Source of the DNA: Psammoneis japonica
Taxonomy: Eukaryota
Reading direction: 5' to 3'
Length of the DNA stretch: 64,000 bases
Assembly: GCA_008632985.1 (NCBI GenBank)
Contig: QPGO01000028.1
Location: forward strand, 305,598 to 369,597
Shown: positions 8,201 to 41,800 of the stretch, piece by piece
Layout: each line of letters begins with the position of its first letter
Numbering within the stretch: position 1 is the stretch's first letter
Position numbers and translations under genes: made by a program
Notes under the pieces: generated by a model
Databases searched by the model: none
Told to the model about the DNA's origin: nothing
The model's input: only the letters and a program-made list of their open reading frames with translations

Positions 8201-8785
8201 ATTTCTGTGATCTCATCTCATGCCATTGCACCAGAAGAGCACGCTCTGGACAGTTTTGCTTGCAACAGCTTAAGAAACTGCCTCTGCGGAACAAGTGGCA
8301 TGAGGGTGAATTCACCCAGCTTGATCATTTTCATGCTCTTGGAATGTTTGGTGCACCAATTGAACAACTGAAGGGTGCGATTGCACTCTGGCTGCATTGG
8401 CAATGCAATGTCAAGACAGATGGAACTTCATGCTCTCACCATTGCTGTGACAGTTCCTCATGTGCTGCTCCTGCTTCACATTGTCTCCAGTCTGTCCACT
8501 CCTCCTGCATGGAACAACTGACTCAGCATTTGTTTTTTGCACTCTTGGCATCACAATGGGATGTTGAGTGCATTCTGGTGATGCACAAGATGCACATGCA
8601 TGCTCACCCAGTCCTTCAACACTGGCACATGTTCAGATCAACAAGGCTCATGCCACTTGGAGCAAGGATTGTTTTGGCATTGATTCAGATGATTGGTCCA
8701 TGGTGCTGCCAATCCCACATGCCTTACAAGGACACCTTGAGCCAGGGGCACTCGGGGAGAACAATGTCAACAAGATCATCATGGA
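5206..8785 (+). mobile_element. Degenerate Ty1/Copia gag-pol (diatom CoDi-like), 3'-truncated
   Basis: Protease-like FDTGA (~5997). Integrase core VDQDGKLY...PTGIGASHQNGPIE..H (~7070-7200). RT N-terminal part GDAQDAH..SP and VLPIPHALQGH.E.G (~8570-8760). Order PR-IN-RT is Copia. Confidence 0.85.
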
Positions 8786-13739: not shown

Positions 13740-14330
13740 TTAATTTGGCATTGGCTCCTTGGAACTGCCAAGACAAGCCAAATGCAGAAAAGCATCAGTT
13801 CCATGTCCCTCCATGCTCACAACATGCAAATCCCCTCCAAAGTGTTGACAATGCAACTGACTGATGGGCAATCCATGCCCCAAACCTGCCAATGGCAAGT
13901 CTGTGGCATGGTCTACATTCTCTCATTGAACACCACCAAGCCCTCTTGTGTGGTGGGATCGGCAGTCGTAAAGAGATGCGACCAAATCTTGTCAATGTTG
14001 CTGCACACAATTCCTCCACCCTTGTCACTCACCTTGATGACCACATCCTCCTTGTTGTCTGCACCATCTGCAATCACCACCTTGATGGGAGGACAGTTGG
14101 CAAAAATTCCGTGCCAATCTGCCATGGCTCTCATGCCATTTTTCAAAAGCTCCAACAAAATGCAATCTGGTGTGCAACATCAAAAGCCGAGTCAAGTCAG
14201 TCGGCTGCACACACCACAGCACACAATGCAACAACATTCTCAAACTCACGCAAATGGGCAAGCATGGGGAAAGGTCAAATCAAGTCATCCCATCATCATG
14301 ATGACTTCCAGAGCATTTGCATGTCTTGGT
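13740..14330 (-). pseudogene. PDK: Pyruvate dehydrogenase kinase (PDK/BCKDK family) C-terminal genomic fragment with an intron
   Basis: LLELLKNGMRA...PPIKVVIADG...EDVVIKVSDKGGGI...KIWSHLFTTA...PLAGLGHGLPIS...HFGGDL..SMEGHGTDAFLHL is the PDK HATPase domain. GTGAGT...CAG intron at 14249-14167; stop TAA at 13742-13740; frameshift near 13920. Confidence 0.85.
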
Positions 14331-14340
14331 GGACAATTGA

Positions 14341-14780
14341 CCCTTCAACCACCATGGAGCAAATCTCCATGGTGGAGATTTGCTCCACTTGACGAGTTGT
14401 GATGTGTCATGCATTTGCACAATGATGAAACAAACATGGTGTAAAAATGTCACATCATGTGCAATCTGCATGAAACACACCACATGCATTTGCTTGTTGC
14501 AAAACAGAGCAATTCATCATAAATTTCACAGTAAAAGGTTGAGATTTAGTTCTCTCTGTACATCAATGAAGTGTGCAACAAACCTGGTGTTAAAAGTTGA
14601 CATTGAACTTTCAAAATGGCAAGAATGGTCCCCCAGAGCTTTTGGCGAATGCGCGCTCCAGAACAAAATTGCGCAAATTTTTTGTCACGCACATCTGAGG
14701 AAATTTTGTTTGGCACATTTGTGATGCAAGCAAGCAAATCTCCACCCATGGAGATTTGCTCAGGTCCAGTGGTTGAAGGG
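14341..14780. mobile_element. piggyBac-type MITE
   Basis: Terminal inverted repeats CCCTTCAACCAC / GTGGTTGAAGGG with an internal GAGCAAATCTCCA..TGGAGATTTGCT hairpin at both ends. Flanked by TTGA (14337-14340) and TTAA (14781-14784). Confidence 0.8.
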
Positions 14781-17700: not shown

Positions 17701-19399
17701 TCTAGAAAGAGTTGGTTGTCATCACAGCACCTCCACTTGGCAGCTCTGGCTTTGTTGGCTTGCTGTGAATGAGAGATGGGTGTCGGTTCTGTCAACATGG
17801 CAGAATGACTGCACTCTAATGTAAATCCACATGGCTGGGAGTGGGGCAGCATGGCTGGGCAGGAGCAGCTTTTATTTCCCCGCGTGACTGACTGCAACAT
17901 GCCAGCACACGCAACACTGAACCACTGCAGCACACAGACGAGCACTGAGAAAAGCAACCACACAAAGACAGGGGAGTCATGGCAATCACGGTGCAGAGGC
18001 AGATCAATCCAGCACAACAGATGGACAAAACAAAGAGAAGGTGGGCAGAGACATGGTCAAGGTGAGAGACCATGTCAAAGAAAAGGTCTTTCTCAGCATC
18101 ACATTTGTGTTTGATGCAAGGCAGTCAGAGGAAACCAGAATGCTGTGCAGAGACTGTGCCCAGAATTGTGGACCAACATCAATGGACAGAACACTTTTGG
18201 AGCTGCCAGAGGCAGAGCAGAAGACACACCTGCATTTCCTGTGGACAAAAATAAAACAAAGGAGGTTGCACCAGGGTTGGCTGATGATGATAAAGCAATC
18301 CAATGCACATCAGGCCCAGCAAGACAAGTTTCACGGCAAGTGTTGTCATGGAGGATTGTCATGGATGAGGAAACAAAATGCCGGCATTGGCATGGTTTTG
18401 TTGTTGCGTGTTGTGCAGAGTGCAAGAGCAACAACAAGGACAACCGTTTGATGTCAGACTGCTGTGATGCAGAGATCAACAACCAAGGAAGCCCCACTGG
18501 AAGGGAAGATTTGTGTGAAATCATGATGCCAGACATCGCCATTGCCAAGCTGGAGGACAAAAACAGATCAAGCGCATTCGCCATTTTGGAAAAAGACCCT
18601 GAAGAGCCCATGGAGCAAGGAACGGGTCAGTTGAGGAGTTGGTGAACTGGTTCAAGGAGGTGCAGAAAAAGTCCATCAAGAGCCACAATGCATGCACGCG
18701 GAAGGTCAGAGCGGAGCAAACAACACAGGATCAATTGTCCATTTTGATGGAGGTCACGACCAAGCCAGAGAGAAACCAGAGCCTGCCAGACTGGGAGTGC
18801 AGTGCTGAGAAGAGACAATGCATGAGATGCCTGGGGCACTTCATGGCAGGAAACTCCAAGAGCGGAGTGGAAGAAGGTGCTTCAAGGAGATGATGCAAGA
18901 TGCCCAGGAAGTGCAAAGGATGGTCAATCAGGGCAAACAAGTTCTTCAAGAAAGTGGCAAGGGAAATCAAACAAGACATTGAGGACTGATGACTGGGCAA
19001 ATGGGAAGATTTGCACAGGACAATTGTGGCCAAGTGCAAAAAGAAGGGGGGCAGGACAATGGCAAGTTTTGTGACAAAGGCGACCACATGGTGAGCTGTG
19101 CCAAGAAATGAAAACTGGAGTTGATGCCTGTTTGGCAGATGGCATGTTAAAAGAATCAATCACATCATTGCAAATGACATCACAGAGCTGATCTGTGAGT
19201 GGTTCAACCACTTCATTCATTGATGGCAGAGCCACAGTCACAAGTCATTGTCTCGAAGCTCGAGGCATGCTGACACATGAACATGTGTGCAATGTCACAG
19301 CATGACATGTGAGCTTGTGTGTTGCAGTCAACAAATTCCAGTGGAAGAGATTTTCCATGTCGGGTGCTTGGCAAAGAAGTGTGCGGGACTGAACACACT

Positions 19400-19655
19400 C
19401 ATCGTGGGGCCCCACAAACACGGAGGGACCCTCCTGTGCAGAGCTCTGCGCGCGAATTTTTGCATGTGGCACCAAAACATGCAGCCTGCAGCATGCACAA
19501 AACTGGCACAGTTTCTATGACAAAAACAAAAAAAAATGCCCAGTTCACGAGATGGCTCTGGTGCGAAACCTGCATGAACAGCCCCCATGCACTCGCGCAG
19601 AACTCTGCACATTTCCGGGTTGCGGGTCCCTCTGCATTTGTGGGGTCCCACGATG
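19400..19655. mobile_element. hAT-type MITE
   Basis: Imperfect long TIRs CATCGTGGGGCCCCACAAA... / ...TTTGTGGGGTCCCACGATG. 8-bp flanking direct repeat AACACACT / AACACACC. Confidence 0.7.
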
Positions 19656-20358
19656 AACACACCCGCCTCTGGAGAAAAATTGGCGCACATTGTCGCAATC
19701 TTCTCAATTTTTGTTCCCCTCCCTGCCTGAGCCCTTTCAGGCTTTCCTTCCTGCAAAATTGCCCTCATCTCCCGGGTGTCAACCAAAAGGGCCAGGCAAC
19801 TCCCCCCCTCGACCTGGCCATTTTTTGGGATTCCTTGAACGGGCAAAAAAGCAAACCAAGCCAAACTGCCAGCTTCAACCTCCCACCACAAAGACTGCTG
19901 CACCTGCTGCAGTGCAATGGTCACAGCGGACTGGTTTCGAATTGATCTTCGCTTGCATGTCCCGACAACCAACTGGGAGCACTTGTGCACCATTAGCCAA
20001 TTTTCCAAAAGCCTGAAGCTATCCGCCCTCGATGCGGGGGCGCCCCCGTCATTGTTTTGACCGTTAAACGGTCATCAATTCATTCTTTTCATGTGCAGTT
20101 ATATTTACAACAAGAAAAGATCCATCCGGCCGCAATAAATACAACCGACCGCAACCGCCACATACATACCGCCCGGTACACACTGGCACAATACTGTACA
20201 CGCACATCATGCAGCACGGTGTTTACAGTTTCGTGTTTCTATCTCACCCCACTTTCAGCAGCAGAAACTGTACCGGTAAGCAACCAACCAACCACTGCTC
20301 CCCCTCGAACACTCACAGCCAATCATCCCTTCTAAACCCCCCCCTCAAGAGCATCAAA

Positions 20359-22437
20359 ATGAAAAGAGGATTGCTCATTTTTGGCATTTTGTGTTTCCTT
20401 GCAGCGGACTTGAGTCTGTTGAAAAGTTTTTTCAATGAAATGTCACGAGTGTTTTTCACAGGTGATGACCTTCCTGACGGCATTGCTGCTGCTGATGGTG
20501 ATGCCAAAAGGAAGGAGGAGGAGAACGCCACTGTTCTCTGTAAGGATGATGGTTCCAACCACACCTCGCACTCTCCTGAGGGAAGCACTGTGGCCTTTGG
20601 AGGTTGTGAGAGCTGGGAGCAGGCATCCCTGCCAGTTTGGGCTACTCGAGACAATGCTGATCAGCACAGTACGGATGTCCCATCCTATAAACAATCAGAG
20701 AGAGTCAGATTCTATATCGACATCATTGGTTGTGATGACAGAGAGTCTCCAGTCGTTGACATGGTGGTGGGCAATCGGATCCTTTACGCTCAGCAGCACG
20801 GTTATCGTTTCTTTTTCTTTGGTGGAGGAACAAAGCTGTTGCAGGACATTCACCCAAAATATGGCAAGCTTGAGGCAATCCTCCGAACATTCCACCCTTC
20901 ATTGGACGGCAAACAGTGGATAGTTTGGATGGACGCAGACACCCTCATTGCCAACACCAGCATCCCTTTTAAGTCTATCATTGAAAGGTTTGCACACACA
21001 GAAACTGACTTTATTGTGGCCCGGGATCTGCATAACGGCTACCCTATGAATACAGGTGTTTTCCTCATTCGAAACACCAAGTGGTCCTTTGATTATGTTA
21101 CATCTGTTATGAACATTGGAATTGAGACTGAGACGACGAAATCACCTCAAGCTATGAGGGACCAGCCCATCATGGTGGAGCAGCTCAGGAAGCAGGGACT
21201 CCTCGAAAAGACTGGATATTATGATTTGAAACACCCGATTGCCATCAACAGCAGGATTTCTGTCATTCCCACAAGAATGATGAATTCCTTTTGCCGCACT
21301 AGTCCCGGGTACATTACTTTTGACCAACGTTTCCGAGAAACTGGAGCTTGGCATCCCGGAGACTTCATTGTGCACTTTACAGGACCGATCAGGGATCTAG
21401 ACAGGGAGCATGACATTGGCATGTTCATCAAGTGGGCAGCAACACCTGGTCACAATTTTCCGAACCCCTGTCTAAATTACGACCAAACTGTTGGAGAAAA
21501 GCAACAACCAGGGAAGCAGAGTTACAACCAAAATGTTAGAGGAAAGCAGCAACCGATGAAGCAGAATAATTTGGGAACCTGTGCTACACAGGATGCACCA
21601 GATCCATCGCAGCTGCAGGCGGAGATGGCTCGGGCAGAGGAGTTGAGAAAGCAACTTGAGTCCTCAGGGCAGTGCATTAAGGGAAAGCACTGTGTGATGC
21701 CTTGTGGAGACGACTCCACCTTTTCCGTTCCAATGCCTCCACCCGGGACGCAGCTGGGCATGTTCCAGGTGTCCGCAATATGGTGCGCCATTAAAATGGA
21801 GTCCAAGCGTCTTGGCCGGGCTGCAAATTTGCTTGTGTATGGGCTGGGGAATGATTCTCCGTTTTGGTCTAATTCAACGGAGGGACGTGTGGTTTTCATA
21901 GAGGACAACAAGTCATGGTTTGACAACATCAAGGCCAAGCACCCTGGTTTGGAGCAGTACATTGTCAAGTATCACACAGTCGTAGAACGTGACATTCAAA
22001 GGGTGGGTAGCCCATCCTTTGAAAAGGAAATGGACCACATCCTGGACTCTTCACCGGAAATCATTGCCAGTGGTGTGGCCAATGAGACTTGGGACGTGGT
22101 CCTTGTTGATGCCCCGGCTGGTTGCGGCTTAAAGGATGTGGGGCGCTTCGCGCCGATCTACACCTCAAGGAGGATGGTGACAGAGCAGGGTCACGGCATA
22201 ATATTCGTTGACGATTACCAACGCTCCCCAGAAAAACTCACTGCCGATGTTGTGCTTGACGGAGGTCTGACCGGCAAATGCAACGGGACTTTGTGTGGCG
22301 ACAAGGTAGCTGTATGGGATCGCGTGAACCCTTTGACTGGGAAATTCATTGAAAAAAATGCATTGTTCAGTTTTGGACATTCCTCTACTGAGAATTTCAA
22401 GAGCACTATGGAAGGACTGCCTGGCGGCTACATCTGA
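20359..22437 (+). CDS. Type II membrane glycosyltransferase (GT34/MNN10-GMA12-like) fused to a C-terminal DUF579 (GXM/IRX15-like polysaccharide methyltransferase) domain, 692 aa
   Basis: Intact ORF with normal Tyr/TpA content and N-terminal hydrophobic anchor MKRGLLIFGILCFLAA. GT34 motifs YAQQHGY, WIVWMDADTLI, NTGVFLIRNT.WS, DQ, W.PGDFIVHF.G. DUF579-like motifs NLLVYGLGNDS.FW...GRVVFIED..W and WDVVLVDAP.G...GR.APIYT. Confidence 0.85.
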   Translation: MKRGLLIFGILCFLAADLSLLKSFFNEMSRVFFTGDDLPDGIAAADGDAKRKEEENATVLCKDDGSNHTSHSPEGSTVAFGGCESWEQASLPVWATRDNADQHSTDVPSYKQSERVRFYIDIIGCDDRESPVVDMVVGNRILYAQQHGYRFFFFGGGTKLLQDIHPKYGKLEAILRTFHPSLDGKQWIVWMDADTLIANTSIPFKSIIERFAHTETDFIVARDLHNGYPMNTGVFLIRNTKWSFDYVTSVMNIGIETETTKSPQAMRDQPIMVEQLRKQGLLEKTGYYDLKHPIAINSRISVIPTRMMNSFCRTSPGYITFDQRFRETGAWHPGDFIVHFTGPIRDLDREHDIGMFIKWAATPGHNFPNPCLNYDQTVGEKQQPGKQSYNQNVRGKQQPMKQNNLGTCATQDAPDPSQLQAEMARAEELRKQLESSGQCIKGKHCVMPCGDDSTFSVPMPPPGTQLGMFQVSAIWCAIKMESKRLGRAANLLVYGLGNDSPFWSNSTEGRVVFIEDNKSWFDNIKAKHPGLEQYIVKYHTVVERDIQRVGSPSFEKEMDHILDSSPEIIASGVANETWDVVLVDAPAGCGLKDVGRFAPIYTSRRMVTEQGHGIIFVDDYQRSPEKLTADVVLDGGLTGKCNGTLCGDKVAVWDRVNPLTGKFIEKNALFSFGHSSTENFKSTMEGLPGGYI

Positions 22438-22970
22438 GATTTATTTTGAACTGCACCTTTGATGAATGCACGTCTCCTACTACATAAATTGTTTATTTTG
22501 AACCGCGCCTTTGATGATGGACGTCTATCACTACATAAGTTGTTAAAAACATCGTAGAGGTCCAAATAGATGTGAGATTCAGCAGTGAGCTAGAGCCAAA
22601 CGGCACGCTCGCCGATTCTAATTAATAGGTAAAGAAAGGGACTAAGGAATAAACATCCATTGAAAAAAATGCATTGTTCAGTTTTGGACATTCCTCTACT
22701 GAGAATTTCAAGAGCACTATGGAAGGACTGCCTGGCGGCTACATCTGAGATTTATTTTGAACTGCACCTTTGATGATGCACGTCTCCTACTACATAAATT
22801 GTTTATTTTGAACCGCGCCTTTGATGATGGACGTCTATCACTACATAAGTTGTTAAAAACATCGTAGAGGTCCAAATAGATGTGAGATTCAGCAGTGAGC
22901 TAGAGCCAAACGGCACGCTCGCCGATTCTAATTAATAGGTAAAGAAAGCGACTAAGGAATGAAACATCCA
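22347..22970 (+). repeat. 311-bp tandem duplication of the last ~30 codons and 3' flank of the GT34-DUF579 gene
   Basis: 22347-22657 is repeated almost identically from 22658. Confidence 0.95.
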
Positions 22971-23099
22971 TGTTGTACGCCCTTCAGTCTGGCAGGTGAG
23001 GTGAACATATACTGTATATAATATATTTGTCTATCTTAAGGCATTTTCGTTTTCCCAATTTTTTTACATCAAAAGTGAAGATTTCTGAGTCTAAGTCAA

Positions 23100-26080
23100 G
23101 TATGCGGGATCGGTCATTGCTACAGTTAAAGTTGCTGCCTGTTGATTAGGAAGTTATAGCTTTTCTACAGGCGGGGGTACCACGACTGGAGTCTAACTTA
23201 CTCTTTCTGCGTGAATTTGATTCTTTGGTGTGCCTTTGGCGTTTTGACGGATGTTTTGGTGTTGTTGTTGATGGTATGACGAGAGTACCTTTACGATTGC
23301 GTTACATGTAGTCGTTTTTTTGTGTATTGGGTCTTAGGGCAAGGAGCACAAGGCTTGGAATGCTTAGTGTTTTGACGGATGGTTTTGGGGGTGTTGATGG
23401 TATCAAGAGAGTACCTTTACAATTTCGCCTTGTATCACATCGTTGTGTCCTGGGTAATAGCGTGACAAAGACATTCACAAGGCTGGGAATGCTGTTTGAT
23501 AGAAAGAAATTATTGAATCTAACACTAGTACTTTGACACGAGAACAAACGAACGGGATCGGCTATTGCATTGTTGTAGCTTCTGTGGCAATTGATGAGGT
23601 TGTCATGGTTTTTTGTCTCTGCTTGACCATCATAGATGAAAAAAAAAGAATCAATCATAAAAAATATAATTGACCATCACGAAAAATATCAATGTCAGAA
23701 AACAAACAGACATCAAGTAAGAAAATACACTGCAAAAACACAATTTCAAACTAATCTAGTTATCTTGGTGGAGTAGTATAAGCAGCTTTTATATTTTAAA
23801 TGTATGTCTAGTTAACGACATGTCCAGTTAACGACTGATAAAAAGAACAATCTGGTTTCAGTCGTTAATTTGAATATTTGTTAGTCGATCAGGTATTTAT
23901 GACACACATTAGCCTTAATGCCTTGATAGAAACTCCCATATCTGTAGTCGTTCTCCTTCGGGTGGTTGCAAAGGCTAATAATCTATTACCCTAGTACTTC
24001 GAGAACCAAGGAACGGGATCGGTTATTGCTTTAGTTGCAGCTGCTCTAGCTATTGATGATTTAGTTATTTTTTGTGTCTCTGGTTGACTATCATAGATGA
24101 AAAAAGAAGAATCAATCATGAAAAAATGTAATCGACAATCTTAAGTCACTAACGTCAAGTCAGAAGATTTATTAGGCCAAATATCCGGGTGTCTTGGGCA
24201 TTGCTGAATAAGAAAAGCGAGAGGCCTCACACGACAACGGAGATGACGGCCCATAACGGCATCGAAGTTCTACAGTACCTTATGACAATAAGAATAACAC
24301 CATTAGAACCGCCATATTTTTCTTAGTCTGTGGGTGCTATTTCTTTTTTTGTTCAGTGCAAATACAACAGGCTTATGGGATGACTTAAGCGGTTGTCAAG
24401 TGGAAAGTTTTTGTACACTTCTCGGGCCATTTCGAGCCCCTAATCTAAACGTAAACAACATAAGAATAGCACCATTGAATAAATCGTATGTAACTTAGAC
24501 AGTATGGTTATTTCTGTGTCATACAGATCTACTTTAGTGACCTTATGTGTCGACTTTCTATGATGCACATCAAGACAGGCGAAATCATTTGAAGACAAAA
24601 GGTCCATTGTAGACTAGTAGAAGAACTGCAGCATATCCTTCAGGAGCCACGTCATATCTACTTCACATTATCGATTGATGCGGTGCAGGCGAGCTTTTGG
24701 TTTGCTTTACTGGTGTCCTACGAAAACCAAGAAGCATGTACGAGATGTATGACAGCATACGGCCCACATCACTCTTTTCTCTTTTTTCACGCTTCCGAGC
24801 TTTTCGAGCTATTTCGTCTTTTTAATTTTCTTTTTTCGCTCGGTTAGGGTTGGCCTTAGTGCTAAAACATGTCAAAGTAACGACTGTTGAAAAGGCGTTA
24901 ATTTGGCACAAAGGCGTGAATTTGGACATTTGTTAGGGCCCTAGTCGCTCTTCTGCCGGTTGTTGCAAAATAAAAACTTCGACACGATAATCACCTAACG
25001 GGATCGGTTATCGCTGTAATTGCAGTTGCTATGGCCATTGATGTGATAGTTATTTGGTGAGTATACACAAACATACATTTTAACATCAATCTTTTAAAGA
25101 TGGCATTCGTGGTGTTTTCCCGTTGGACGACCTAAGATATTTTTCGATTAGTCATCTCGCCATTCAATGTAGTCGATAATATTTTGGATGCAAAAGATAA
25201 GATGAAATATGGTAGCTTATGTGTAGAATACAACAGATCGTTTGTAAGGCCAAAATTGTGCTTGTGTCGTCAAAAAATACAAACCATAAGGGGCCGCCAT
25301 GGCCGATGTTCGGAATAATTTATTGTGTAGTGTTACACTGTCTGTAATGAAGCATAAGCCAAACATTAATGCTTCATAATGATAAGGTTGAACCCATAGG
25401 ATACACCCTTATTCGTAGCTATAGGAAAACGAAAGGAATGATTCGTATTTTACATAAACGTAACACCCATTTCTTGTCTCTGGTTTTGTCTACCGGCATT
25501 AAAACTGACCCTACAAAATACTGGTAGACGGTAGATGAAAAAAGAAGAAATCAATCATGGATAAGAAATGCAATTGACCATCTTAAGTCACTTATCACAA
25601 AACAGCAAATGTCAGAAAATAAGCGAATATCAAGTCAGAAAATAGAGTGTTCTAAACGGCTCTTATATTTTGACGTTAATTTGGACATTTGATATTTGGT
25701 CAGGTACGTTTTGTTGCACGCTAGCCTCAATGCCTTGATGAGAAACTCACATCTCTGTAGTCTTTCTTCTGTCAGTTGTTGTAAAGGCTTGAATCTACCC
25801 TAATCCTTCGACACGAGAACCTAACAGCATCGGTTATTGCTATAGTTGCATGATGGATGAAAAAAGAAGAATCAACCGCGGAAGTTGCTTTCTAGTTGCA
25901 CGCTAGCCTCAATGCCTTGATGAGAAACTCACATCTCTGTAGTCTTTCTTTTGCCAGTTGTTGTAAAGACTTGACTCTACCCTAATCCTTCGACACGAGA
26001 ACCTAACAGCATCGGTTATTGCTATAGTTGCATGATGGATGAAAAAAGAAGAATCAACCGCGGAAGTTGCTTTCTAGAGT
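23100..26080. repeat. Dispersed degenerate copies of the GH125 gene 3' end and flank
   Basis: TAGCCTCAATGCCTTGATAGAAACTCACATCTCTGTAGTC-like blocks at ~23910, ~25722 and ~25903 match 35904-35942 (and 35676-35725). 23730-23980 aligns with 35748-35970. GGATCGGTTATTGC-like motif recurs at ~23107, 23555, 24016, 25001, 25830 and 26010. Confidence 0.7.
25713..26076. repeat. 182-bp tandem duplication
   Basis: GTTGCACGCTAGCC...GAAGTTGCTTTCTA at 25713-25894 and 25895-26076. Confidence 0.92.
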
Positions 26081-27465
26081 GCATGTCTTTAAACTCGCAA
26101 ATGTAGGCAAGAAGAAGAACGGATCTGAGAGAAGACAACATATCTCAAAATCTAAGTATTTATGGACCCCTAATTTGAAAAAAAGGGATTCATCGCACTA
26201 AATGCACGCGCGTTCGCCAAAATGAAATTGCAGTGATAGGTCGAGCTTTATGAGTTCTCAAGACATCATAGTATGCAAAGGCGATGGTTATGAGCATGCG
26301 CGACGTTTGGCTTATAGACTGTAGATATGTCTATAGCAAATCAAACGCCAATTATCGGCATTTCCTGGAAAAGTATGGCTTATCTACCATAAGTAGCATA
26401 ATTTTGGCGAAAATTAGCGGTAATTTCAACCTAGCATCAGGGCAAAAGTTAAAGAATTTTCATGCTTCATGCAACATTTCTTGCTTCAAAAGACCTAAGA
26501 TGAGCCTATATTTAAAGTCAGTTTTGTCAGAATGCACAAGCCATAAAAAGTTAAGCAACTCACCAAACATTGTGGAGAGGGCATCTCTTGCGTTGACATC
26601 CTTGATGCTTTTATTGATGCAATTTCAAAAGCTGAGATCGAGGCGCAATCTGGTTTTCAGCATCAACTCAAAATTATCGGGATCACGCTCGAACAACGCC
26701 TTCCGAAAAAAAAGCTATTTCGAGTAGCACTAGCTCCAACTTACTTTTTTTGCCTCGTTAGTAGCTCTCTACAGTACCATGGATACATTACCTGTAACCT
26801 ACCTGTGGCTACTTTTCTTTGGTTTCTTTTGCCTATTGAAGCTCTGCATTGCTTTCTAGAGCGTATGTCTTTTCAACTCGCAAATGTAGGCAAGAAAAAG
26901 AATTGAGCTGCGAGAAGAGAACAAGTCTCAAAAGCTAAGCAAAAAATCTCCATCGCAATGGGTTTTCTGAGGTGAAACGAAGTTAAGATTGGCTCAGCTC
27001 CGTTGCTTGTTTCAAAAAGTCCAAAGATGAGTGATTGAGTTTTCTGAGGTTTAATGAAGTTTACATGGCTCGTCAACAGCTCCATTGCCCGTTTCAAAAA
27101 GTCCTAAGATGAGCGATTGATGCTATTTCTTAAAGAAAAAACTAACCACCTTGTCACTGAATGATTCACAGAAATTCGACTAAAATTAATTAAAAAGGCA
27201 AATCATCGCCTTTTTCTTTTCGACTAAAATTAATAAAAAAAGATCATCGCCTTTTTTCTTTTAAATCCGACAGTCCATGGAACCTGTGTACCTCGTTCAA
27301 TCGGAAGATTCTTCCTTGAAGCCATTGCTTGTTTCAAAAAGTCCTAACCAGATTTTTATGTATCCACCATGTAATTGTCTGCTAAAGCTTTAAGTCTTGT
27401 TTGTGCTACAGGTGTGTTGTACATTTGAAAACCCTTTAGCAATGTCATGGCACATGGCCAGTGTG

Positions 27466-27703
27466 TGTTGGAAATGGTGAATTAAAAGTTCAAACACCGA
27501 AATTAGATAGCGTGAAGAAGACGTACGCGTCAGCGCTTATGTGCTCCACGTGAAGCAACGAAACAGCCGATGGAAGCAGTCATTATTCTCTTTTAACTCT
27601 TAGAAAGTATTGTGATAACAAGCTTGTCTATTTTAGCCTCAGGATCAGACCTTAGAGGACTGAGGTGGCTCTGGAACAATCACCAGAAGGACAAATTACA
27701 ACA
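27466..27703 (+). repeat. 5' LTR of Copia family A
   Basis: TGTTGG...TACAACA; aligns end to end with 32730-32967. Confidence 0.95.
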
Positions 27704-28424
27704 GCTGAAAGAGAACAATCCAGCTGAGAGCTGTGAAAAGAAAGCAAGAAAGAAAAGAGTCATTCTCACGGTGTGTGAGACATTTTACTGCTTTGCCTTT
27801 TTATCATGAGTGGAAGAGGCAGAGGTGGAACTGGCAACAGAAGCCAAGGAAGAGCATGCATTGAACTGCCAAGAGCACAGGTGTGACATGTGGCTGTCAT
27901 CTCAGATTCAATGAGAGCGGTGCTGGAAACCAAGCAGAAGGAGAAGGAGAGTCTCCAAGATCACACCAAGAGATTCAGGGTTGCAAGGGACATCATGAAG
28001 TCTCACATTGGAGGACCAATTGTCCTCACCAAGGCAGTGCAAGGCATGTCAGAATGCGACGAGCACAATGCGGATTCTATCAAGAAGTGTCAAGAAAAGG
28101 CATTCAGCCAATTGATGGGTTACGTGCACTTGGAGAACGCAGACCAGTGCAAGTGCGGATCAATTCTAACAGGATTGAACACTCAGCAGTCCCTCAAGAA
28201 CGACCAACATCCCAAGTCTGTTGCGGAAGCCAACACGGTGTTGAGCAACCACACTTTTGACTGCGTTGGTCAGCCTGACAACTGCTGTAACAGGAACAAT
28301 CGAAACAACAACTCTGACTCCAAGAAACAAGAAGAAAACCAAGAAATCACGCTGTCCTTTGCTCAGTTAGAAGGCAAGTGTTGCTGCTGTGGCAAGGCCG
28401 GACACAATTCCAACAAGTGCTGGG

Positions 28425-28759
28425 TGTTGTAATTCATCCTTCTGGTGACTGTTCCAGAGCCACCTCAGTCCTCTGAGGTCTGATCCTGAGGCTAAAATGG
28501 ACAAGCTTGTTGTCACAATGCTTTCTAAGAGTCAAAAGAGAACAAGCTTGTCTATTTTAGCCTCAGGATCAGACCTCAGAGGACTGAGGTGGCTCTGGAA
28601 CAGTCACCAGAAGGACAAATTACAACAGTTAAAAGAGAACAATGACTGCTTCCATCGGCAGTTTCTTTGCCTCACGCAGAGCACATGAGCGCTGATGCAC
28701 ACGTCTTCTTCGCGCTGTCTAATTTCGGTGTTTGAACTTTTAATTCACCATTTCCAACA
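28425..28759 (-). mobile_element. Rearranged solo LTR of family A inserted antisense into gag of the same family
   Basis: Reverse-oriented LTR ends, perfect 5-bp TSD CTGGG (28420-28424 / 28760-28764), and an internal inverted duplication with arms 28425-28511 and 28541-28627. Confidence 0.92.
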
Positions 28760-31700
28760 CTGGGAAAGGCAAGGAAAACCTCAAGCAGAATGGGCCATCA
28801 ACAAGGCCAAAGCCAAGCAAGAAGCAAGCAACGCTCAGGCGAGTGACGATGCCAGTGCAGCCAATTCTTCTGCCAAAGAATCCACTGGAACAAAATCTGC
28901 TGTTTCAGGATGGGCTGGCACGCACATCAAGCGATTTGTCTCTCCACCAGGATCAATCTGGCAGCATGAGAGACTGGATCTTATTGGACAACCAGTCCAC
29001 AACCACAATCTTCTGCAATGAGAAGCTCGTTGCAGACATCCGTCCGTCAGATGAAGCCATGCGTTTGGTCACGACACCACAAGGCCATGGTGCCAGGGTT
29101 TGGCAAGACTTGGTTTAACCCAGATGCAATCACCAACATTTTTGCTTGCTCTGACATGAAGAAGAAACACAGAATCACAAGTGATTCTAAGCAAGACAAC
29201 GCATTCACCGTTCATCTCCCCAACAAGAAGGTTGGGTTCGAGGAGGACGGAAAAGGGCTGCAAGTTTACAAGCCCAAGATAAATGACACTGGAACTCAGC
29301 TCCAATTTGTGCAGAGTGTGGAAGAGAACAAGAAGTTCTACACTCCACGACAGTTCGAGAAAGCCAAGAGGGCTGGGGAATTGTTGCGCGCATTGGGAAA
29401 CCCAACCGTGAATGATCTGAAGGCCATCATTCGCGTGAACAGCATCAAGAACAATCCCGTCACAACGGAGGATGTAGATTTGGCCTAGAAGATTTTTGGA
29501 CCAGATGTTGGAAGTCTAAAAGGCAAGGTCACAAGGCAGAAGCCGGAGCCAGTTGCAGAAGACTGCGTGGAGATCCCGAAGGAGCTCATTGCAGTGCAAC
29601 ACAAGGTCACTCTTTGCCTGGACGGTCTCAAGGTGAATGGATTGCCATTCCTCACCACAGTGTCACGAAACATTTTTTATCGCACGGCACAACCGCTCAA
29701 GGACTTGACCCAACCAACTCATCAAGAAGCTCTGGAAGATGTGCTGCGAGTCTACAACAAGGCCGATTTGAAGGTCACATGCATTGCTTCGTTGCAACAA
29801 CGAATTCAGGCCCATTGGGAATGCACTAGAAGACAAGTTTGATCTCAAGATGAACTGCGCAAATGCTCAGGAGCATGTCCCAGAAGCCGAAAGAAACAAC
29901 AGAGTTGTTCAAGAATGTGCCAGGGCAGTCTGTCATCAGCTGCCATCCAAGCATCTGCCAAAACTCATGGTCAAAGTCATGGTCACCGAAGCTGCTAAGA
30001 AGCTCAATCATTTTCCAGCCAAGCACGGCGTTTCCAAACATTGCAGTCCAAGAATGATTCTCCATCAAAAGAATCGAGACTGTGACAAGAGCTGCAAGAT
30101 CACGTTCGGCACTCATGTGCAAGCTCACAATGACCCGGACCCCAAGAACACCCAAGAGTCACAGACCTTGGATTGCATTTGTTTGCGCCCCACCGACAGC
30201 AACCAGATTGGACATGAGTTGCTGCACTTGCAAACCGGCAAGAAGATCACTCGTCGCAAGGTCACCCCTGTGCCCATCACTCCCACCATCATGAAGCAGG
30301 TTCATCGTTTGGCTGAAATGAACAAGATGCCCAATGGTCTCAAGATTCAGAACAGCACTGGAGCTGTTTTGTGCAACAGTGCTTGGCTTGCAGGAGTGGA
30401 TTGTGATGAAGATCAATTTGAAGACGAAGACTGTGATCTAGAAGAAGACATTGAAACTGAAGACAACGAGGAAGAAGAGCCAGACTGGGGAGACTGCAAC
30501 AGAGTCATTCAAGAAGAGCTGCAAGACACAATTCAAGAACAAGAATTGGATGAAGAAGCCAGCTGCATCAGCAAAGAACAAGACGAGACTCAAGAAGAAA
30601 AACCTCCAATGATGAGCATCTCGGAGACAATGACGAAGTTGGTTCTCAACCGTCAGACGGCAGCGGAATTTCACAAGAAATCAACGACATGATTGACCAC
30701 ATTGATGAACAACAGAGGCTGGAACAAGAGAAGGAACACTCTCCGGAAGTGCAAGAGATCATCGACGAAATGAAAGACCTGGAATCTGATGACGAATCTG
30801 GAGAGGAGCAGAGCAAAACCAAAGAAAGTGTCCAAGAAGAGCCTGTTGCTGCATCCAGGGCAGGAAGGACTCTGAAACCTCCAGTTAGATTGGGAGACTG
30901 CCAATGCCATCTACAGACTCAAGCTCATTCACAAGAAGAAGAGCACAGCTTAGAAACAGCCAGAATCATGGCCACGACAATGTGTCAGTGGAACGAGAAG
31001 GTCAGCACGATTTCCACTGATGAAGAAGCACATCAATTTGTTCAGACTTGCAGCTTGGCACGAGGACTCCAGAAGTTTGGAGAAGAAGGCCACAAGTCGG
31101 CAGTGTCAGAGCTGAAGCAAATCCACAATGGAGTGGTTTTCAAACCCATTCACATCAATGACATGACTCCTCTGGAGAGGAAGAGAGCCATGGAGAGCCT
31201 CATGTTTCTCACAGAGAAGAGAGATGGACGAATCAAGTCAAGGTTGTGTGCAAACGGAAGCACGCAACGAGAGCACATGGACCGAGATGAAACCGCCAGT
31301 CCGACAGCATCCACAGAATCTGCTCTCATTGCAGGAGTGATTGATGCCAAGCAAGGCAGAGACATCATGACAGCGGACATCCCGAGCGCATTTGTGCAAA
31401 CGGACATCAAGGTCAAGGATGAAAAGATCATCATGAAGATCCGTGGAAGGATGGTGGACATGTTGCTGGAATTGGATTCAGACACTTGCCAGGACTGCAT
31501 CGTGCACGAAGGCAAACACAAGGTTCTCTGCATTGAAATGTTGAAGGCACTCTGCGGAATGCTGGTGTCATCCATTCTTCATTGCAAGAAGTTCCGCAGA
31601 GACATCGAAGGAATTGGATTTGAGGTCAACCCTTGTGATCCATGTGTCGCCAACCGCATCATGAATGGAAAACAACACACGGCAACATGGCATGCAGACG

Positions 31701-32729
31701 ATTTAAAGTCTGGTCACGTTGACAGCAAGGTCAACAATGAACTCAAGATTTGGTTGGACAAAACTCATGCAGATGAGATCGGAAAGGTCAAAGTCACTCG
31801 TGGAAAGAGGCACGACCATCTAGCCATGACTCTAGATTGCTCCATTCCAGGAGCACTGCAAGTTGACATGGTGCTTCATGTGCAAGGAATGGTCGAGGAG
31901 TTCTTCAAGGAATTCCCAGAAGAATTGTCAGGTGACGTGGATTGCCCATGGAGCGAGAAGCTCAACAAGGTGGGTGAGACAGCCAAGAAATTAGATCTCA
32001 AGCATGCTCGAGCATTTTGCACTTTTGTGATGAAGGGCATGTTTGTGTGCAAGAGAGCCAGACAGGACATTCAGCCTGGCACTGCTTTTCTCTCCACCAG
32101 GGTCAAGGATCCGAACGAATCGGACTGGCCAAAGCTGGTGAGGCTCATGAATTTCCTCAAGACAACCCAGTTTGATGTCGCAGTCATGTCGGCTGGAGAC
32201 AAAGTCATCATCGAGTGGCACACTGATGCCGCATTCGCAGTCCATCTGGACCACAAAAGTCACACAGGTTCTGCCATGACCCTTGGAAAAGGTGTCATTG
32301 CATCAGTCAGCACGAAGCAGAAGATCAACACCAGGAGTTCCACAGAAGCAGAGATTGTCGCAGGAGACGATGTTTTTGCAAAGGTCCTTTGGACCAAGCA
32401 TTTTGTTGAAGCTCAAGGTTTTGAAGTTGAGCGCAACATCATGCATCAAGACAACCAAAGTTGCATGAAACTAGAACAAAATGGAAAGGCCAGCTCGGGC
32501 AAATGCACGAGACATTTCAACATCAAGTGTTTTTGCATCACTGACCTCATCAAGCGAGGAGAACTTGAGATTGAGTTCTGCCCAACAGACAAGATGATGG
32601 CAGATTGCATGACCAAACCAGTGGTTGGCAAAAGTTCATTGTTGATCGTCAAGCCATCATGAACATCCAAGTGCCCAAGATGGTCAAATTTGGAAATGGC
32701 AAGAATCTTGTCATTGGTCAGCAGGAGTG

Positions 32730-32967
32730 TGTTGGAAATGGCGAGCTAAAAGTTCAATCACCGAAATTAGATGGCGCGAAGAAGACGCACGTGCCAGCGC
32801 TCATGTGCTCCACGTGAAGCAACAAAACAGCCGATGGAAGCAGTCGTTGTTCTCTTTTGTCTCTTGGAAAGCATTGTGACAACACGCTTGTCTGTTTTAG
32901 CCTCAGGATCAGACCTTTGAGGACTGAGGTGGCTCTGGAACAGTCACCAGAAGGACAAATTACAACA
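32730..32967 (+). repeat. 3' LTR of Copia family A
   Basis: Follows the PPT-like tract; same length as the 5' LTR. Confidence 0.95.
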
Positions 32968-33199
32968 GCATGCTCTGCAGTGTGTGGGCAGTTTGCCCAG
33001 TGACGGGAAGCATGCGGGGAGTCGGCTGGGCCCAGAGCACTGGTTCACCCCACCACATCTCCCACACAAAAATCACATTTCCAGTCATGGCTCGTGGTTG
33101 TTTTTGAAGGTTTTCACTCGCAATTGATGTGCCAGGCATTGTTTTGTGCCATGCGTTGTTGTTTCGAAGCCTTTGGTTTGCTGGCTTGCCACTTTCTCC

Positions 33200-34823
33200 T
33201 TGCTTGAGGGGTGGCAACTTCAATGCACTCCACCTGCTCTTCGCATGACGGGTTTGTGGAAACAGCCTTGCTTGGAAATGAACACATGCAAGTGTCAAAT
33301 GGGCACAGAGTGGTGTTGTGATCAAAGAGGGGTGGCAACTTCAATGCACTCCACCTGCTCTGTCTTTGCACAACAGGTTTGTGGAAACAACCTTGCTTGG
33401 CACAAACACACACAAGTGTCAAATGGAGGACACAGAGTGGCACAATCAAACAGTGGAGCATTCTCCAAAACCACCTTGTGCTTGATGAGTTCACAGCCCT
33501 CATCGATGATGTCTTGCAACCTCTCCAAGAAGGTTTCTCCAGTCACGTTGCACCGTGCAGATGACTCATCGTGAAAAGGAAAAAATGCAAGCAAGTGCCA
33601 AATGGAGGACATGGAGTGGCACAATCAAACAGCGGAGCATTCTCCAAAACTGCCTTGTGCTCAAGTTCACAGCCCTTGTTGTCATCGACAATGTCTTGCA
33701 ACCTCTCCAAGAAGGTTTCTCCAGTCACGTTGCACCGTGCAGATGACTCATCGTGAAAAGGAAAAAAATGCAAGTGAGCTGGTTCCAGTCAATCCAGTTG
33801 CCAAGAATCTGACACTGCTGCAAACCAGCAAACATTGGCACCGATCCACTCAAGATCACATCCATTGGTCATTGGCTCTCCCCCAAGAATCACCGCAGAC
33901 ATGGAACCCAAATTTGGACTGGGACAGAGCGGACAGCGGGAACCTTCTCCACACACCGACGTCCCAATGGTGGAAGAGTGCCCAACCACTTGCACACATT
34001 TCGTCGATCATCAAACTGTGGTTGGTCGGGGGTTCTCAGGCTGCCAATCATGGTGACATCATGTCGCTTTTCTTCTTTGGATGAATTGTCACCACAGTTC
34101 GATCCCACTCAGCATGAAGGCAGAAACTGTTGATTTTTTGATTTCCGTTCTGGCACCTCGTCTTCAAAAATGTGATGACTGCTGACGTCTGTTCGACAAG
34201 CTCGTTCAAACCTGGAACATGTGTCCTGGTGAAGTTGTGAAAATCAATTGACCAACAGCCGGCCAAGGCAAAATGGGGCCGCACCATGACGTGGCGCTCT
34301 GGGCACTTCTGAAAGGCCTCAGAATCTCATAAAATTTTCTGGGAACAGTTCAGCAGTTCATTGTCACATCTGCCATTCAACAGAGATTGTGTGTTTTTTG
34401 ATGACCCCACGCGATGATGGTTGTAAAACAATTGTGTGACCAGGGGACAAAGAACAACTTTGCCTTGTCAATGTTTCGAGTCTGCGTGGGGTGGTTTGAG
34501 CTTGCGTTCATGAAAAAGCAATCGTCCCCATGGTTGAAGCTTGGCATCATGCTGCTCATTTCGGGTGAACGCATGTTTGCTGACCGGCCACATTCCACAA
34601 GTGGCATTGGGTGTTGACCCATGCCAACTCCTCGTAGACGTAGAATGGGACACTCAGCAGCAACTCAGGGGCAGCATCGCCAGATGGCTTGCTTCTCCGC
34701 TTGTGTCTGTCAGAGGAGGGCCGTGGGCTGAAAGCAGCAGTGGGCACAAGCCAAAGACACACATGAAGAGCGCGAATTTTCGAATGCTCATCGTGCCGGG
34801 AAACCGGGGGCAGTTTGGGTCAT
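33200..34823 (-). pseudogene. Exostosin-like (GT47) glycosyltransferase pseudogene with a duplicated C-terminal segment
   Basis: PFYVYEEL, HGDDCFF...NHPTQTRNIDKAKLFFVP and SKFGFHVCGDSWG...MDVILSGSVPMF resemble exostosin motifs. Several frameshifts. ~180-bp tandem copies at 33413-33591 and 33592-33774. Confidence 0.7.
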
Positions 34824-35069
34824 GATGGAGTTCGTTTTTGCGTTGCAGCAGCCGTGGGCCGTGGGCGGATCATCGTTGCGCAACACAGTGCAATGTCGAG
34901 CAAAACTCAAAAGGGAAAACAAACAATGTTTCGCTGACATCCAGTCAAATGTAAATGATGTGGAGCTCTGACTGCTGCAGCTCGGCCACTGCCATCGTCG
35001 GTCGTCGCTCTAGCTGCTTCTAGCTAGCTAGAGAGTAGAGCACAGCACCGGTGGCTCTAGCTCTAGAGT

Positions 35070-38833: not shown

Positions 38834-41800
38834 TGACAGGATTTGAACAAGATTTTAGTTTGTCACACACAATTGTGTGTGCTCTCAGTTCCACGCACGT
38901 CATGCGATGTGGTTTGCTTTCGAGCCACTCAGCTCACAAGAACAATGACAGCAGCACCGACATCACGACACCAGTCTTTTGGCTCCTGTGACGGTCTCTG
39001 CACGGAGACTCATCTGCTGTTTAGACAGCAGCAAGGAGTCACTGTTTTCTTCCACCCAGTCGTCTTTGTTTTCTGTCAGATTGACAGTCTTGCTCTTTGT
39101 CATCCATTGAGCATTCATCATCGTCATTGAGAAATTTTCGATGACGCGCACCGTTGGCGGTGGAAGTGTGTGTCCACCTTCTTCGCTGCTGGACACTGGA
39201 TTAAATCTGCACGTTTGGATTTGTCCAATGCCTCCCATCGTTGGACACATTTGTTCAATGGACATTTGTTTGGCCAGGAATTCCTGAATTCTCAGACATC
39301 CGAGATTCCGGATTCCTCACAGCGGATCCCACTGACAATCCATCCGCTCGCGTCCACGCGCGCACGATGCAAACCCTGACTCTGGCCCTGCTCTGCACAC
39401 GCCAAGTCTACCGCCTTGTGCCTGCACCAGATTGCTGGTCCTCTGCAGTTCTACAAGGTCCACAAGGACAACTGTGAGAGGAAGCAGTTCTTGATCACAG
39501 CCTGCGTTGGGGCGAGGGTGCATTTCCCGCGTTTGTTCGTCCCTCCACAGCGCCAAATTTGGCCGGCCTGATCGGGTTGTCCAACCGATGTAAAATGAGA
39601 ACGGTTCAGAGGTCTTGTCCACCTCTAGTTGGCTTGTCAGCAGGGGTTTTTAACCCATTGCTCCACTCTCAGGCAACCCAAAGTGTCGCCAGCTGCGGGT
39701 TCGGACGTGCCGGCACAACTCTGCGGACCGGATGGGAAGCTCAGCACTTAACTACGAACAGGACATCACAGCCTGGCGGCTTCTGACTCTTAAGATGGTT
39801 CAAGACATCAAGTCAAGACTCAAGTCAAGTTTCAAGTTATTTCAAGCTCACCCTCTGACTCTGGCCAGTTCCGACATCCACCCAGTTGCAACATGGTTCT
39901 CACCAGGCAACAACAAATTGATGGCCTCGAGTGCATTCTAGGCACTGTTCTGAATCAAGCCGCAGACAGTCCATTGTGCTCCGCTCTCAACATTGATGGA
40001 ATCGATTCGCATCAGGACCTTTTTGCTTTTACTCTGACACAACTGGATGCCCTTGTGTGCAACGATGGCACCAATCAGATGCCCTTGCCACGTGGTTACA
40101 AAGCACAGATAGCTGCGCTGATTAGCCTGCACACGGCAAAAGCGCGCGGCGGCGCCGATGTCAGCAACAACCCTCAATTGTTCACTCACAAGGAGTTCAC
40201 TGACTGTCGTCTTAGTCCTGAGCATGTGGCATCCCTCTCCATGGGCACCGTGCCATCTGCTCCCACCCCTGGCTCTTTGCCACCCAAAAACCACATGACC
40301 CTGTGCGTGACTTTAAACGAGGCATCAAACATGACCCACTCACCTTCGCGACTCTCAAGTCAGACAAACAGTGGCACACGTGGCACACCTCCATCATCGC
40401 ACAGGCCCACTCCCAGGATGTCGAACTCGTTCTTGATCTGAAGTGCAAGCCCTCCACAGCTGAGGACAAGGCCCTGTTTGATGAACAACAGAAGCACATG
40501 TTCGCCGCATTCGAACGGATCTTGAAGAATGACAAAGGCAAGGCGCTTGTTCGTCAACATGTCGACTCCTCTGATGCTCAAGCGGTGTGTCGCGACCTTT
40601 CCAAGTGCGCCCTCACTTCCACTCGCGCATCCCTGGAGTCCTCGACCCTTCTCACGTACCTCGCCACTGCTCACCTCGGTGATGGCACCTGGAAGGGCTC
40701 CACCCATGCCTTCGTGCTTCACTGGCAGGACCAGCTTTGCAAGCATGAAGCTCTTGTCCCGGGTGCGGACCATTTCTCTGCTGGCCAGAAACATGTCATG
40801 CTTGAGAACGCCGTTCATCCTGTTGAAGAACTCCGTTCGGAAAAGAATCAAGCTGATCAGTTCCACATGCAGAATGGAAAAGGTCTCTCTTGCGAAGAGC
40901 ACTGTGGACTTCTGCTTTCTGCTGCAGCACAGTGCGACAGCACGTTCACCCCCAAGACCACTCCTGGCACTCCACGCCGTGCCATCTACGAACATGACCT
41001 GGTTCCCGACGACCCTGACGATGATGCATTCTTTGACATCGACAGTGATGTTGACGTCATCCAAGCTTGTGCTGCACAGACCCACGGCAACTCCCTCACC
41101 AGGGAACAATGGCGTCACATTCTGCTGGACCATCAGCGCATTTGGGACACCTTGCCCCAGTCCACCAAGGCCATCATTCTTGGCTTGCGCAATGCCCACA
41201 CCAGCAACTGCCATGACTCAACGATGGTCAACCTCCACGACCTCCGTCTTGGCAGTGACGGTGACATCAACTTGTCCACCAACACCCATGCTCTTGCATC
41301 GGAACTCACACCATCCGATGCTGCAGCCGATGCAGCCAATGCCAACCCCATTCTGGCTCATCTCACCAGGTGCAAGCCCCTGCCACCTGGCAACTTGCAA
41401 CATCTCCTGGCACCTGAATGGCCTCCTTCCGCCCATTCCGGTGAGAAACCGCCCGGATCTGCACCTTCCGCCTGCTCCGACGCGAAGCCCAATGACACTG
41501 ACATTGAGATCAACGGCCACAAATGCCATCGCGTCAACAACCACAATGTTGTCTGCTCTGCCTCGACCCACAAGTCAACTCGCAAAGGTGCTCTTGTGGG
41601 TCATGGTGCAAATGGTGGCATCGCTGGTGATGATGTTCGTGTCATTGCCCGCACTGGTCGCCAGGTTGACGTCCAAGGTGTCGACGATCATCAACCAGTC
41701 GACATCCCCATTGTCACTGCCGGTGGTGTCATCCACACGCAATGCGGCCCTGCCATTGCCACCCTTCACCAGTGCACCTGCACTGGAAAGGGAAGACGAC

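Follow-up and report, generated by a model that had tools for sequence, protein, structure and literature searches.

The two LTRs (long terminal repeats) that one reverse transcription produces are identical when the element integrates, which raises the question of how one of them can come to hold 14 TpA dinucleotides and its twin 4. The case lies in a stretch of 64,000 nucleotides from Psammoneis japonica (assembly GCA_008632985.1, contig QPGO01000028.1, positions 305,598 to 369,597 of the forward strand), which was analysed whole and is called the window here, with positions counted from its first letter. In it a decayed Ty1/copia element with 238-bp LTRs (27466–32967) adjoins a gene island by its 5' LTR. 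An initial annotation, made from the letters alone, had proposed that the element was mutated at TpA after it had integrated, and to a degree that depends on position. We find it probable that this DNA has undergone hypermutation of TpA to TpG or CpA, at the DNA level, after integration and on both strands, aimed at silent, transposon-rich domains.

One-sided loss of TpA between the two LTRs

The 5' LTR (27466–27703) and the 3' LTR (32730–32967) are direct repeats on the forward strand, with ends that read TGTTGG..ACAACA, and they align without a gap at 90.8% identity (22 differences in 238 positions). At nine sites TA in the 5' LTR stands against TG (five) or CA (four) in the 3' LTR, and at none is this reversed (sign test p=0.004). 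The count agrees with the initial annotation, which had spoken of about nine such sites and none the other way; all seven of the site pairs that it named are present, and 27585 and 27595 join them. The remaining differences comprise one TA/TT pair (27654), five of CpG type (CG vs TG or CA, in both directions) and seven of other kinds. Counts of TA are 14 vs 4 in the 5' and 3' LTR, those of CG 9 vs 11, and the TpA level of the 5' LTR is like that of the gene island. Nine ancestral TpA are now TG or CA in the 3' LTR, and one is now TT.

Four LTRs of the family were aligned, in the order 5' LTR, 3' LTR, a solo LTR nested in the element in inverted orientation (28425–28759, reverse strand) and, as an outgroup, the LTR (12090–12285, reverse strand) of an older, rearranged copy that spans ~9464–12285. 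TA is found in other copies as well at 27595 (TTAAC/TTGTC in the pair) and 27602 (CTTAG/CTTGG). Three or four states are seen at 27509 (GATAG/GATGG; TA/TG/CA/TG across the four), 27524 (CGTAC/CGCAC; TA/CA/TG/TG), 27630 (TCTAT/TCTGT; TA/TG/CA/CA) and 27654 (the TA/TT pair; TA/TT/CA/TG), and at these four the expectation that other copies resolve the same sites oppositely was borne out. Since they show either TA in other copies or three to four states, six of the ten TA sites of the 5' LTR are supported as probable ancestral TA by the other copies in the window. TA stands in the 5' LTR alone at 27538 (CTTAT/CTCAT), 27585 (TTATT/TTGTT), 27608 (AGTAT/AGCAT) and 27616 (GATAA/GACAA).

The element is flanked by GTGTG on the left (27461–27465) and GCATG on the right (32968–32972), which match at three of five positions and differ at two neighbouring ones, TG on the left and CA on the right. 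Both words can be derived from one target-site duplication (TSD), GTATG with TA or GCGTG with CG, resolved in opposite directions, just as the initial annotation had suggested with hits on opposite strands. The choice of the original target stays as it was left there, as the TSD by its letters appears equally compatible with GTATG and GCGTG. The positions of the LTR ends and the 5-bp length of the duplication are fixed independently by the nested solo LTR, which is bordered by a perfect CTGGG duplication (28420–28424 and 28760–28764). Among random pairs of 5-mers from the window, 0.5% are reconcilable through a TA or CG ancestor, identical pairs included, and 0.15% are identical; given this chance level, the reconcilable flanks make a single insertion appear well supported. 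In run X1, the single public run found to contain the stretch (two runs of the same sample were listed, and none of RNA as containing it), none of the 11 joints listed for the contigs bridges 27465 to 32973, as an empty-site allele would.

Conserved tyrosine codons give the direction of change

It is the protein, rather than the LTR copies, that decides which way the sequence changed; the LTR copies in the window leave four sites unpolarised. The frame for reverse transcriptase (RT) and RNase H (30554–32659) runs for 702 codons with zero stops and zero tyrosines, whereas 150 homologues have a median Tyr content of 3.3%. We aligned it with 79 close diatom homologues, each with at least 2.5% Tyr, and considered the 369 columns in which consensus reaches 60% or more. 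The element matches 303 of the 351 conserved columns that are not Tyr and keeps none of the 18 that are; in their place stand Cys/TGY (10), His/CAY (7) and Phe/TTC (1; Fisher p=4e-15). With 99 more distant homologues the result is the same, none of 14 Tyr columns being kept (Cys 6, His 3, Phe 5). Because conserved Tyr columns imply TAY codons in the functional ancestor, this alignment of sequences shows TA as the ancestral state and TG and CA as derived. The polarity that the initial annotation had assumed is thereby established independently of the LTRs.

Among the 120 matches listed, none of the nearest proteins has less than 2.5% Tyr, and three metagenome relatives of the element (53–57% identity) have an observed-to-expected ratio (O/E) for TpA of 0.58–0.75, an ordinary level that makes them unmutated comparators. 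Three of the 365 public copia-like proteins retrieved, P0132, P0224 and P0229, are Tyr-poor (1/541, 4/453 and 3/458 residues) with Cys and His raised, and from these the same erasure may be present in other public assemblies.

Changes after integration and on both strands

Four lines of evidence support changes that post-date integration, as had been claimed for the LTR pair and the TSD. LTRs copied from one template now differ one-sidedly, 9:0; the target duplication itself is split into GTGTG and GCATG; the two copies of a 19-bp duplication inside the nested solo LTR show a TA/TG difference; and other genomic copies carry TG where the element has CA, and vice versa. Among the differences listed (40 of 180), such adjacent CA/TG doubles fall at 27962/3, 28937/8, 28945/6, 29506/7 and 31817/8. 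The last of these is CAT in the element and TGT in other copies, in a column that is 100% Tyr in homologues, indicating that one TAT was resolved independently in different copies. Over the LTR and Tyr sites together TG is the outcome 15 times and CA 11 times (p=0.56), and from this balance we conclude that both DNA strands are hit.

The k-mer contigs of run X1 reproduce the stretch at 26407–27492 with 0 differences and the TpA-free stretch at 34009–34654 with three differences and one gap, at a depth of ~56–63. Over the element the summed contig depth, which does not equal copy number, is 20–45 times that of the flanks, and 1369 contig pieces match it at 90% likeness or more. One contig (depth ~60) runs from the end of the internal region (32731) into an LTR start that fits the 5' LTR (27466) better, with extra letters at the joint; it may stem from a further copy or allele whose 3' LTR is less mutated, or else from a form that is circular or in tandem.

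A sharply bounded domain of TpA loss

Across the window as a whole the TpA O/E is 0.23, and that of TG/CA ~1.6. The TpA ratio is 0.00–0.22 in 50 of the 64 one-kilobase bins, where TG+CA reaches 2.0 (TG and CA ~1.9), and normal values (0.63–1.15) are confined to 22–27 kb and 35–38 kb, the cores of two islands. The window's only intact host frames, a GT34 + GXM-like gene and a GH125 gene, both lie inside these TpA-normal islands. The TpA-poor DNA contains a second copia RT, a gypsy-type pol and many frames of no recognised family with 0–3 Tyr; the transposon frames elsewhere in the window have 0–3 Tyr per 436–691 residues. In this window, then, the loss is confined to foreign or integrated DNA, and host genes are spared.

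The proportion TA/(TA+TG+CA), profiled at 250-bp resolution, is 0.30 in the 5' LTR, with 0.25–0.39 in the island. It is 0.04–0.13 from 27716 to ~29.9 kb, so that TpA is already low in the leader and gag (27704–28424), and thereafter 0.00–0.07 (mostly 0.00–0.02) up to the 3' LTR. Beyond the element, the downstream flank (32973–35000) is almost devoid of TpA, with 0–3 TA per 500 bp, up to an edge at ~34952/35011 before the GH125 gene. The last and first dense TA at the island edges are found at 19994/20020, 27697/27786, 34952/35011 and 38363/38501, all of them sharp, and in the left flank dense TA continues up to the LTR (27407, 27420, 27437). Within the internal region there is a second drop, from 29 TA to 430 TG+CA before 30 kb vs 9 to 538 after it (p=0.0002), which may partly reflect a differing ancestral composition of gag and integrase on the one hand and RT on the other. 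Polarised Tyr columns, few in number, are kept at 1 of 3 in the 5' third of the element vs 0 of 12 further 3'. The claim that mutation is graded by position is thus upheld as to a real position effect and corrected as to its form: the change is not smooth, but steps down sharply where the 5' LTR meets the internal region and drops a second time near 30 kb.

The best reading of this profile is that the 5' LTR would lie just outside a sharply bounded, mutated domain. Location, rather than copy number or homology, directs the process, since the 5' LTR is spared while its twin is hit, and the low-depth flank at 33–35 kb is fully depleted.

A second LTR-like pair on the forward strand (38837–39078 and 53313–53554, 14.5 kb apart) differs at 23 of 242 positions. 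Changes among the TA, TG, CA and CG states make up 20 of the 23 and three are of other kinds; five TG/CA doubles, eight CpG-type differences and two sites with TA in the distal copy vs TG in the island-side copy are found, and there is a 24-bp indel just upstream. No TSD was found for it, so the pair is perhaps not the product of one insertion.

Rate, dating and sequence context

In the 3' LTR, 10 of 14 TpA have been lost, compared with six private changes at ~186 sites outside TA and CG; as a rough figure from fixed differences, TpA loss per site is ~40-fold above that at other sites, and in the element it is several times faster than CpG decay. The two kinds of depletion are uncoupled along the window. 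At 1–19 kb both are extreme (CpG O/E 0.05–0.3), and at 39–53 kb the TpA O/E is 0.0–0.2 yet the CpG O/E is still 0.6–0.85; from the latter region TpA loss seems the faster process. The LTRs diverge by 9.2% raw and by 3.4% (8/238) outside the TA/CG-state classes, and the second pair by 9.5% and 1.2%. Ages dated from LTR divergence are thus inflated, as had been predicted for this element, by ~2.7-fold, and for the second pair by ~8-fold.

Surviving TpA was surveyed in 50 kb of depleted DNA (1–19500, 30000–35000 and 38500–64000), with island contexts as a stand-in for ancestral ones. An A precedes the T in 7% of the 296 survivors vs 26% in the islands. Measured as relative survival, ATAT stands at 0.05 (1 left vs 44 in islands), ATAC at 0.13 and TTAA at 2.3; TTAA, CTAA and GTAA survive best, and ATA/TAT is almost gone. 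This bias among the survivors suggests an extended sequence preference of the process.

Architecture of the element and its neighbours

The gag frame (27887–28432) ends in a CCHC knuckle (CCCCGKAGHNSNKC). The pol region (28760–32729) consists of broken frames and includes the RT/RNase H frame. A forward fragment (28538–28643) made up of an LTR end and 16 bp of leader breaks up the nested solo LTR, and the resulting layout is palindromic, with LTR positions 118–136 overlapping over 19 bp. When the nested LTR and its TSD are removed, the order from gag to RNase H is unbroken. The copy at ~9464–12285 is without this nested insert; its LTR and gag on the reverse strand (12285–10731) abut a pol fragment on the forward strand (9464–10731) at 10731, a junction that is, by its layout, presumably an inversion or a template switch.

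A full HMMER search with the element's RT returned 30,679 relatives at E <=0.001. The closest are copia proteins with 52–65% identity, some of them named from Fragilaria, Nitzschia, Epithemia and Attheya. Homologues of the RT (E down to 1e-239) carry PF07727 in 110 of 120 among the matches listed, and the long ones align to the element from 29114 onward. The RT itself scores 26.8 bits against Pfam RVT_2, with a cut-off of 31.6, and the frames between gag and RT gave no Pfam match. Loss of this kind drops Pfam models below threshold on mutated transposons. It has a further effect: DNA free of TpA is without TAA and TAG stops, and many long spurious open reading frames result, which will mislead gene prediction into over-calling. 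Open frames of at least 200 residues are plentiful here (37 per 64 kb, of which two are host genes), and a Pfam scan of 16 such frames, plus the two of the element, left most without a match.

The window is diatom-like nuclear DNA, in that the GH125 frame and the copia family match diatoms best; on these matches a dinoflagellate host with 5-hydroxymethyluracil at TpA, the candidate considered first, was dropped. The island that adjoins the 5' LTR (20000–27465; TpA O/E 0.45–0.81) consists of a gene followed by AT-rich non-coding DNA, with a GC content of 0.36–0.41 next to the LTR. Its gene is an intact, intronless frame of 789 codons (20068–22434, forward strand), for which Pfam gives a GT34 galactosyltransferase-like domain joined with an IRX15/GXM-like domain; 22 of its 789 residues are Tyr. 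The gene lies at the island's left edge, and the start of the island is within ~350 bp upstream of the first Met. At 24000–25200, inside the same island, the summed contig depth in run X1 is 340–540 vs ~56–85 nearby; a repeat with TpA at its normal level may lie here, which would fit targeting by location. In the other island, the GH125 frame (PF06824; 35877–37622, reverse strand) is intact over 582 codons, has 28 Tyr among its 582 residues, and is 56–67% identical to proteins named from Amphora, Seminavis, Nitzschia and other Bacillariaceae.

Proposed course of events and alternative readings

We envisage that the Ty1/copia element would have inserted once, at the right-hand edge of the gene island, and that after integration TpA would have turned into TpG or CpA, an A:T to G:C change, about equally on either strand. 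The process would work inside silent, transposon-rich domains and stop abruptly at their edges, one of which would be the junction of the 5' LTR with the internal region. The 5' LTR would in this way keep all its visible TpA, the 3' LTR would lose 10 of 14 and the RT/RNase H region essentially all, and the TSD would be split into GTGTG and GCATG by the same process or by CpG decay. The direction of the change, its date after integration, its action on both strands and its confinement to certain regions are shown by the present data; beyond that, such a process may well be enzymatic and may be directed by chromatin state. A first guess at its chemistry is deamination of A after T to hypoxanthine, which would be read as G; alternatively, a modified base at the palindromic TpA (oxidised T or methylated A) could mispair or be mis-repaired, like 5-methylcytosine at CpG.

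Several observations weigh against this course of events. The step in TpA coincides with the end of the LTR (27697 vs 27786, ~100 bp), as would also be expected if gene conversion by, or recombination with, a young LTR free of the mutations had restored the 5' LTR, in which case the asymmetry would not be positional. The leader just past the 5' LTR is already changed from TA to TG relative to two other copies, many possible donors are suggested by the 20–45-fold depth and the 1369 contig pieces, and the second pair shows no island-side protection, its island-side copy being as depleted as its partner. Conversion of a mutated 5' LTR should, however, have left a depleted flank, and the left flank is TA-dense up to the LTR; depletion at the other island extends 330–470 bp past the repeat end, the second drop in the internal region depends on position, and private changes (27513, 27679) are found in the 5' LTR too. 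We regard restoration by conversion as unlikely. The island-side copy of the second pair lies 330–470 bp inside the depleted domain, and since it is unprotected, nearness to a gene alone is not the rule and the domain edge is decisive. A different objection concerns polarity. At 27538, 27585, 27608 and 27616, four of the ten sites, all copies but the 5' LTR share one state, CA or TG, and these unpolarised sites could, as far as the copies tell, be C-to-T changes in the 5' LTR, which has at least two private GC-to-AT changes (27513 and 27679 again) and adjoins AT-rich DNA. If TG/CA (or CG) were ancestral throughout, and TA had arisen by ordinary C-to-T mutation or by one resembling repeat-induced point mutation (RIP), the 5' LTR would be the mutated one. 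This is contradicted by the conserved Tyr columns, of which 0 of 18 are kept and 17 read TGY or CAY. Moreover, the TA-rich regions are those with intact, conserved host genes, sites with the states TA/TG/CA(/TT) are most simply derived from TA, and a TpA O/E of 0.00–0.1 is the opposite of a RIP footprint, which makes the reversed polarity highly improbable.

The changes could also have been made before integration, by ADAR-like RNA editing or errors of reverse transcription, and inherited by the copy, and ADARs typically prefer a U on the 5' side of the edited A (bioRxiv 10.64898/2026.01.13.699255). As the sole cause this is contradicted by LTRs that were identical at integration and differ 9:0; the target duplication and the low-copy flank at 32973–35000 are affected too, and the two strands are hit equally (15:11), whereas editing of sense RNA yields TA to TG alone. 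Pre-integration editing may make a minor contribution, and we think it very unlikely to be the explanation. If instead the LTRs came from different insertions, in a recombinant or composite element, their differences would predate the locus; the flanking 5-mers are indeed not identical (3/5 match), an LTR is nested in the element and a rearranged relative lies in the window. Yet the 5-mers differ by no more than TG vs CA at neighbouring positions, reconcilable by chance in 0.5% of cases, and the order from gag to RNase H is continuous once the nested LTR is removed, and a composite origin is correspondingly hard to credit. Some long-read base-callers are known to mis-call modified motifs systematically, and a modified base at TpA in silent chromatin, mis-called as G or C, would give a sequencing or assembly artefact; the library type of run X1 is not on record, and the run is probably from the source sample, hence not independent support. 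Its contigs nevertheless reproduce 26407–27492 and 34009–34654 nearly exactly at a depth of ~56–63, a given site can read TG in one copy and CA in another, and 3 of 365 public copia-like proteins are likewise Tyr-poor; an artefact is barely credible. One objection bears on specificity. Outside the TA-to-TG/CA and CpG-type classes the 3' LTR has seven private changes, all at A:T pairs (in 5' LTR numbering, AT to GC at 27481, 27482 and 27530, A to T at 27494, 27596 and 27654, and A to C at 27621), of which that at 27654 falls on the A of a TpA. Given these non-TpA changes, either the specificity of the process for TpA is imperfect or another process is at work as well.

Two of the A-to-G private changes of the 3' LTR lie in AAT. 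A Pol-eta-like error process at WA motifs, considered because of such changes, is disfavoured, as the ApA O/E stays at 1.14. GC-biased gene conversion was ruled out, ApT, ApA and TpT not being depleted.

Comparison with known systems

The preferred reading, hypermutation of TpA after integration, shares traits with several known processes. Decay of 5-methylcytosine at CpG likewise has a palindromic pyrimidine–purine target, TG and CA as products, silent DNA as substrate and TG/CA double differences between copies. It also acts in this window, where 5 of the 22 LTR differences are of CpG type; however, it cannot remove TpA, the loss of which is here both faster and more uniform than that of CpG, and the LTRs differ strongly in TA (14 vs 4) but not in CG (9 vs 11). 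Vertebrate editing of retroelements by ADAR and APOBEC proteins produces deaminase-type clusters of transitions in retrotransposon copies as well, but it is a pre-integration process, strand-specific and common to both LTRs, whereas the changes here follow integration, involve both strands and include the flanks. Fungal RIP resembles the present case in that dinucleotide-specific transitions after integration degrade transposons, leak into flanks and inflate LTR divergence. In contrast to it, C-to-T change at CpA in RIP creates TpA, and here TpA is destroyed; RIP is triggered by duplication, and here one LTR of a pair escapes and position decides. The TpA excess that marks repeats under RIP is absent from the window, whose depleted DNA, at a TpA O/E of 0.00–0.1, shows the opposite polarity.

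A full-text literature search, with most subscription journals outside its coverage, gave no report of TpA erasure in diatom transposons. The only close precedent found is a 2026 preprint on Bigelowiella natans, which describes the same signature in a distant lineage. In mutation-accumulation lines of B. natans, 230 of 231 mutations in two integrated viral regions were A-to-G or T-to-C, all at TpA (bioRxiv 10.64898/2026.01.13.699255), at a rate ~1000 times background (Mettrop et al. 2026, bioRxiv 10.64898/2026.01.13.699255). Clusters depleted of TpA occur elsewhere in that genome, reverse-transcriptase Pfams are enriched among TpA-depleted coding sequences, and adenine deamination with an ADAT2-like candidate was proposed; a term search of the preprint returned no mention of diatoms (bioRxiv 10.64898/2026.01.13.699255).

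The two cases agree in an A:T to G:C change at TpA on either strand, confined regionally to foreign or integrated DNA, and in TpA depletion with enrichment of CpA and TpG. They differ in that B. natans is a rhizarian with viral DNA, whereas here LTR retrotransposons and their surroundings are affected in a diatom-like stramenopile. Depletion is near saturation here (O/E 0.00–0.1) vs 0.45 in the B. natans region derived from a nucleocytoplasmic large DNA virus. The domain edges here are resolved to ~100 bp and an extended context can be seen, ATA/TAT being lost most and TTAA least, although these are derived from fixed differences and the B. natans mutations were measured de novo. If the present reading is true, targeted hypermutation of TpA to TpG or CpA in integrated mobile DNA occurs in another eukaryotic lineage, only distantly related to the first. 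To the B. natans study it would add an LTR pair and a target duplication that time the process after integration, a stop within ~100 bp at a domain edge irrespective of repetitiveness, and an extended sequence preference. A bolder proposal, to which we give slightly less than an even chance, is that diatoms have an enzyme-driven defence by DNA base editing aimed at chromatin domains, which would erase TpA from silent DNA at ~40 times background and faster than CpG decay, remove all Tyr codons and TAA/TAG stops, end at edges of ~100 bp and prefer ATA/TAT. As a rhizarian has been reported to show this signature too, such a defence could be one of long standing in the SAR (stramenopile, alveolate and rhizarian) supergroup, and a mirror image of fungal RIP.

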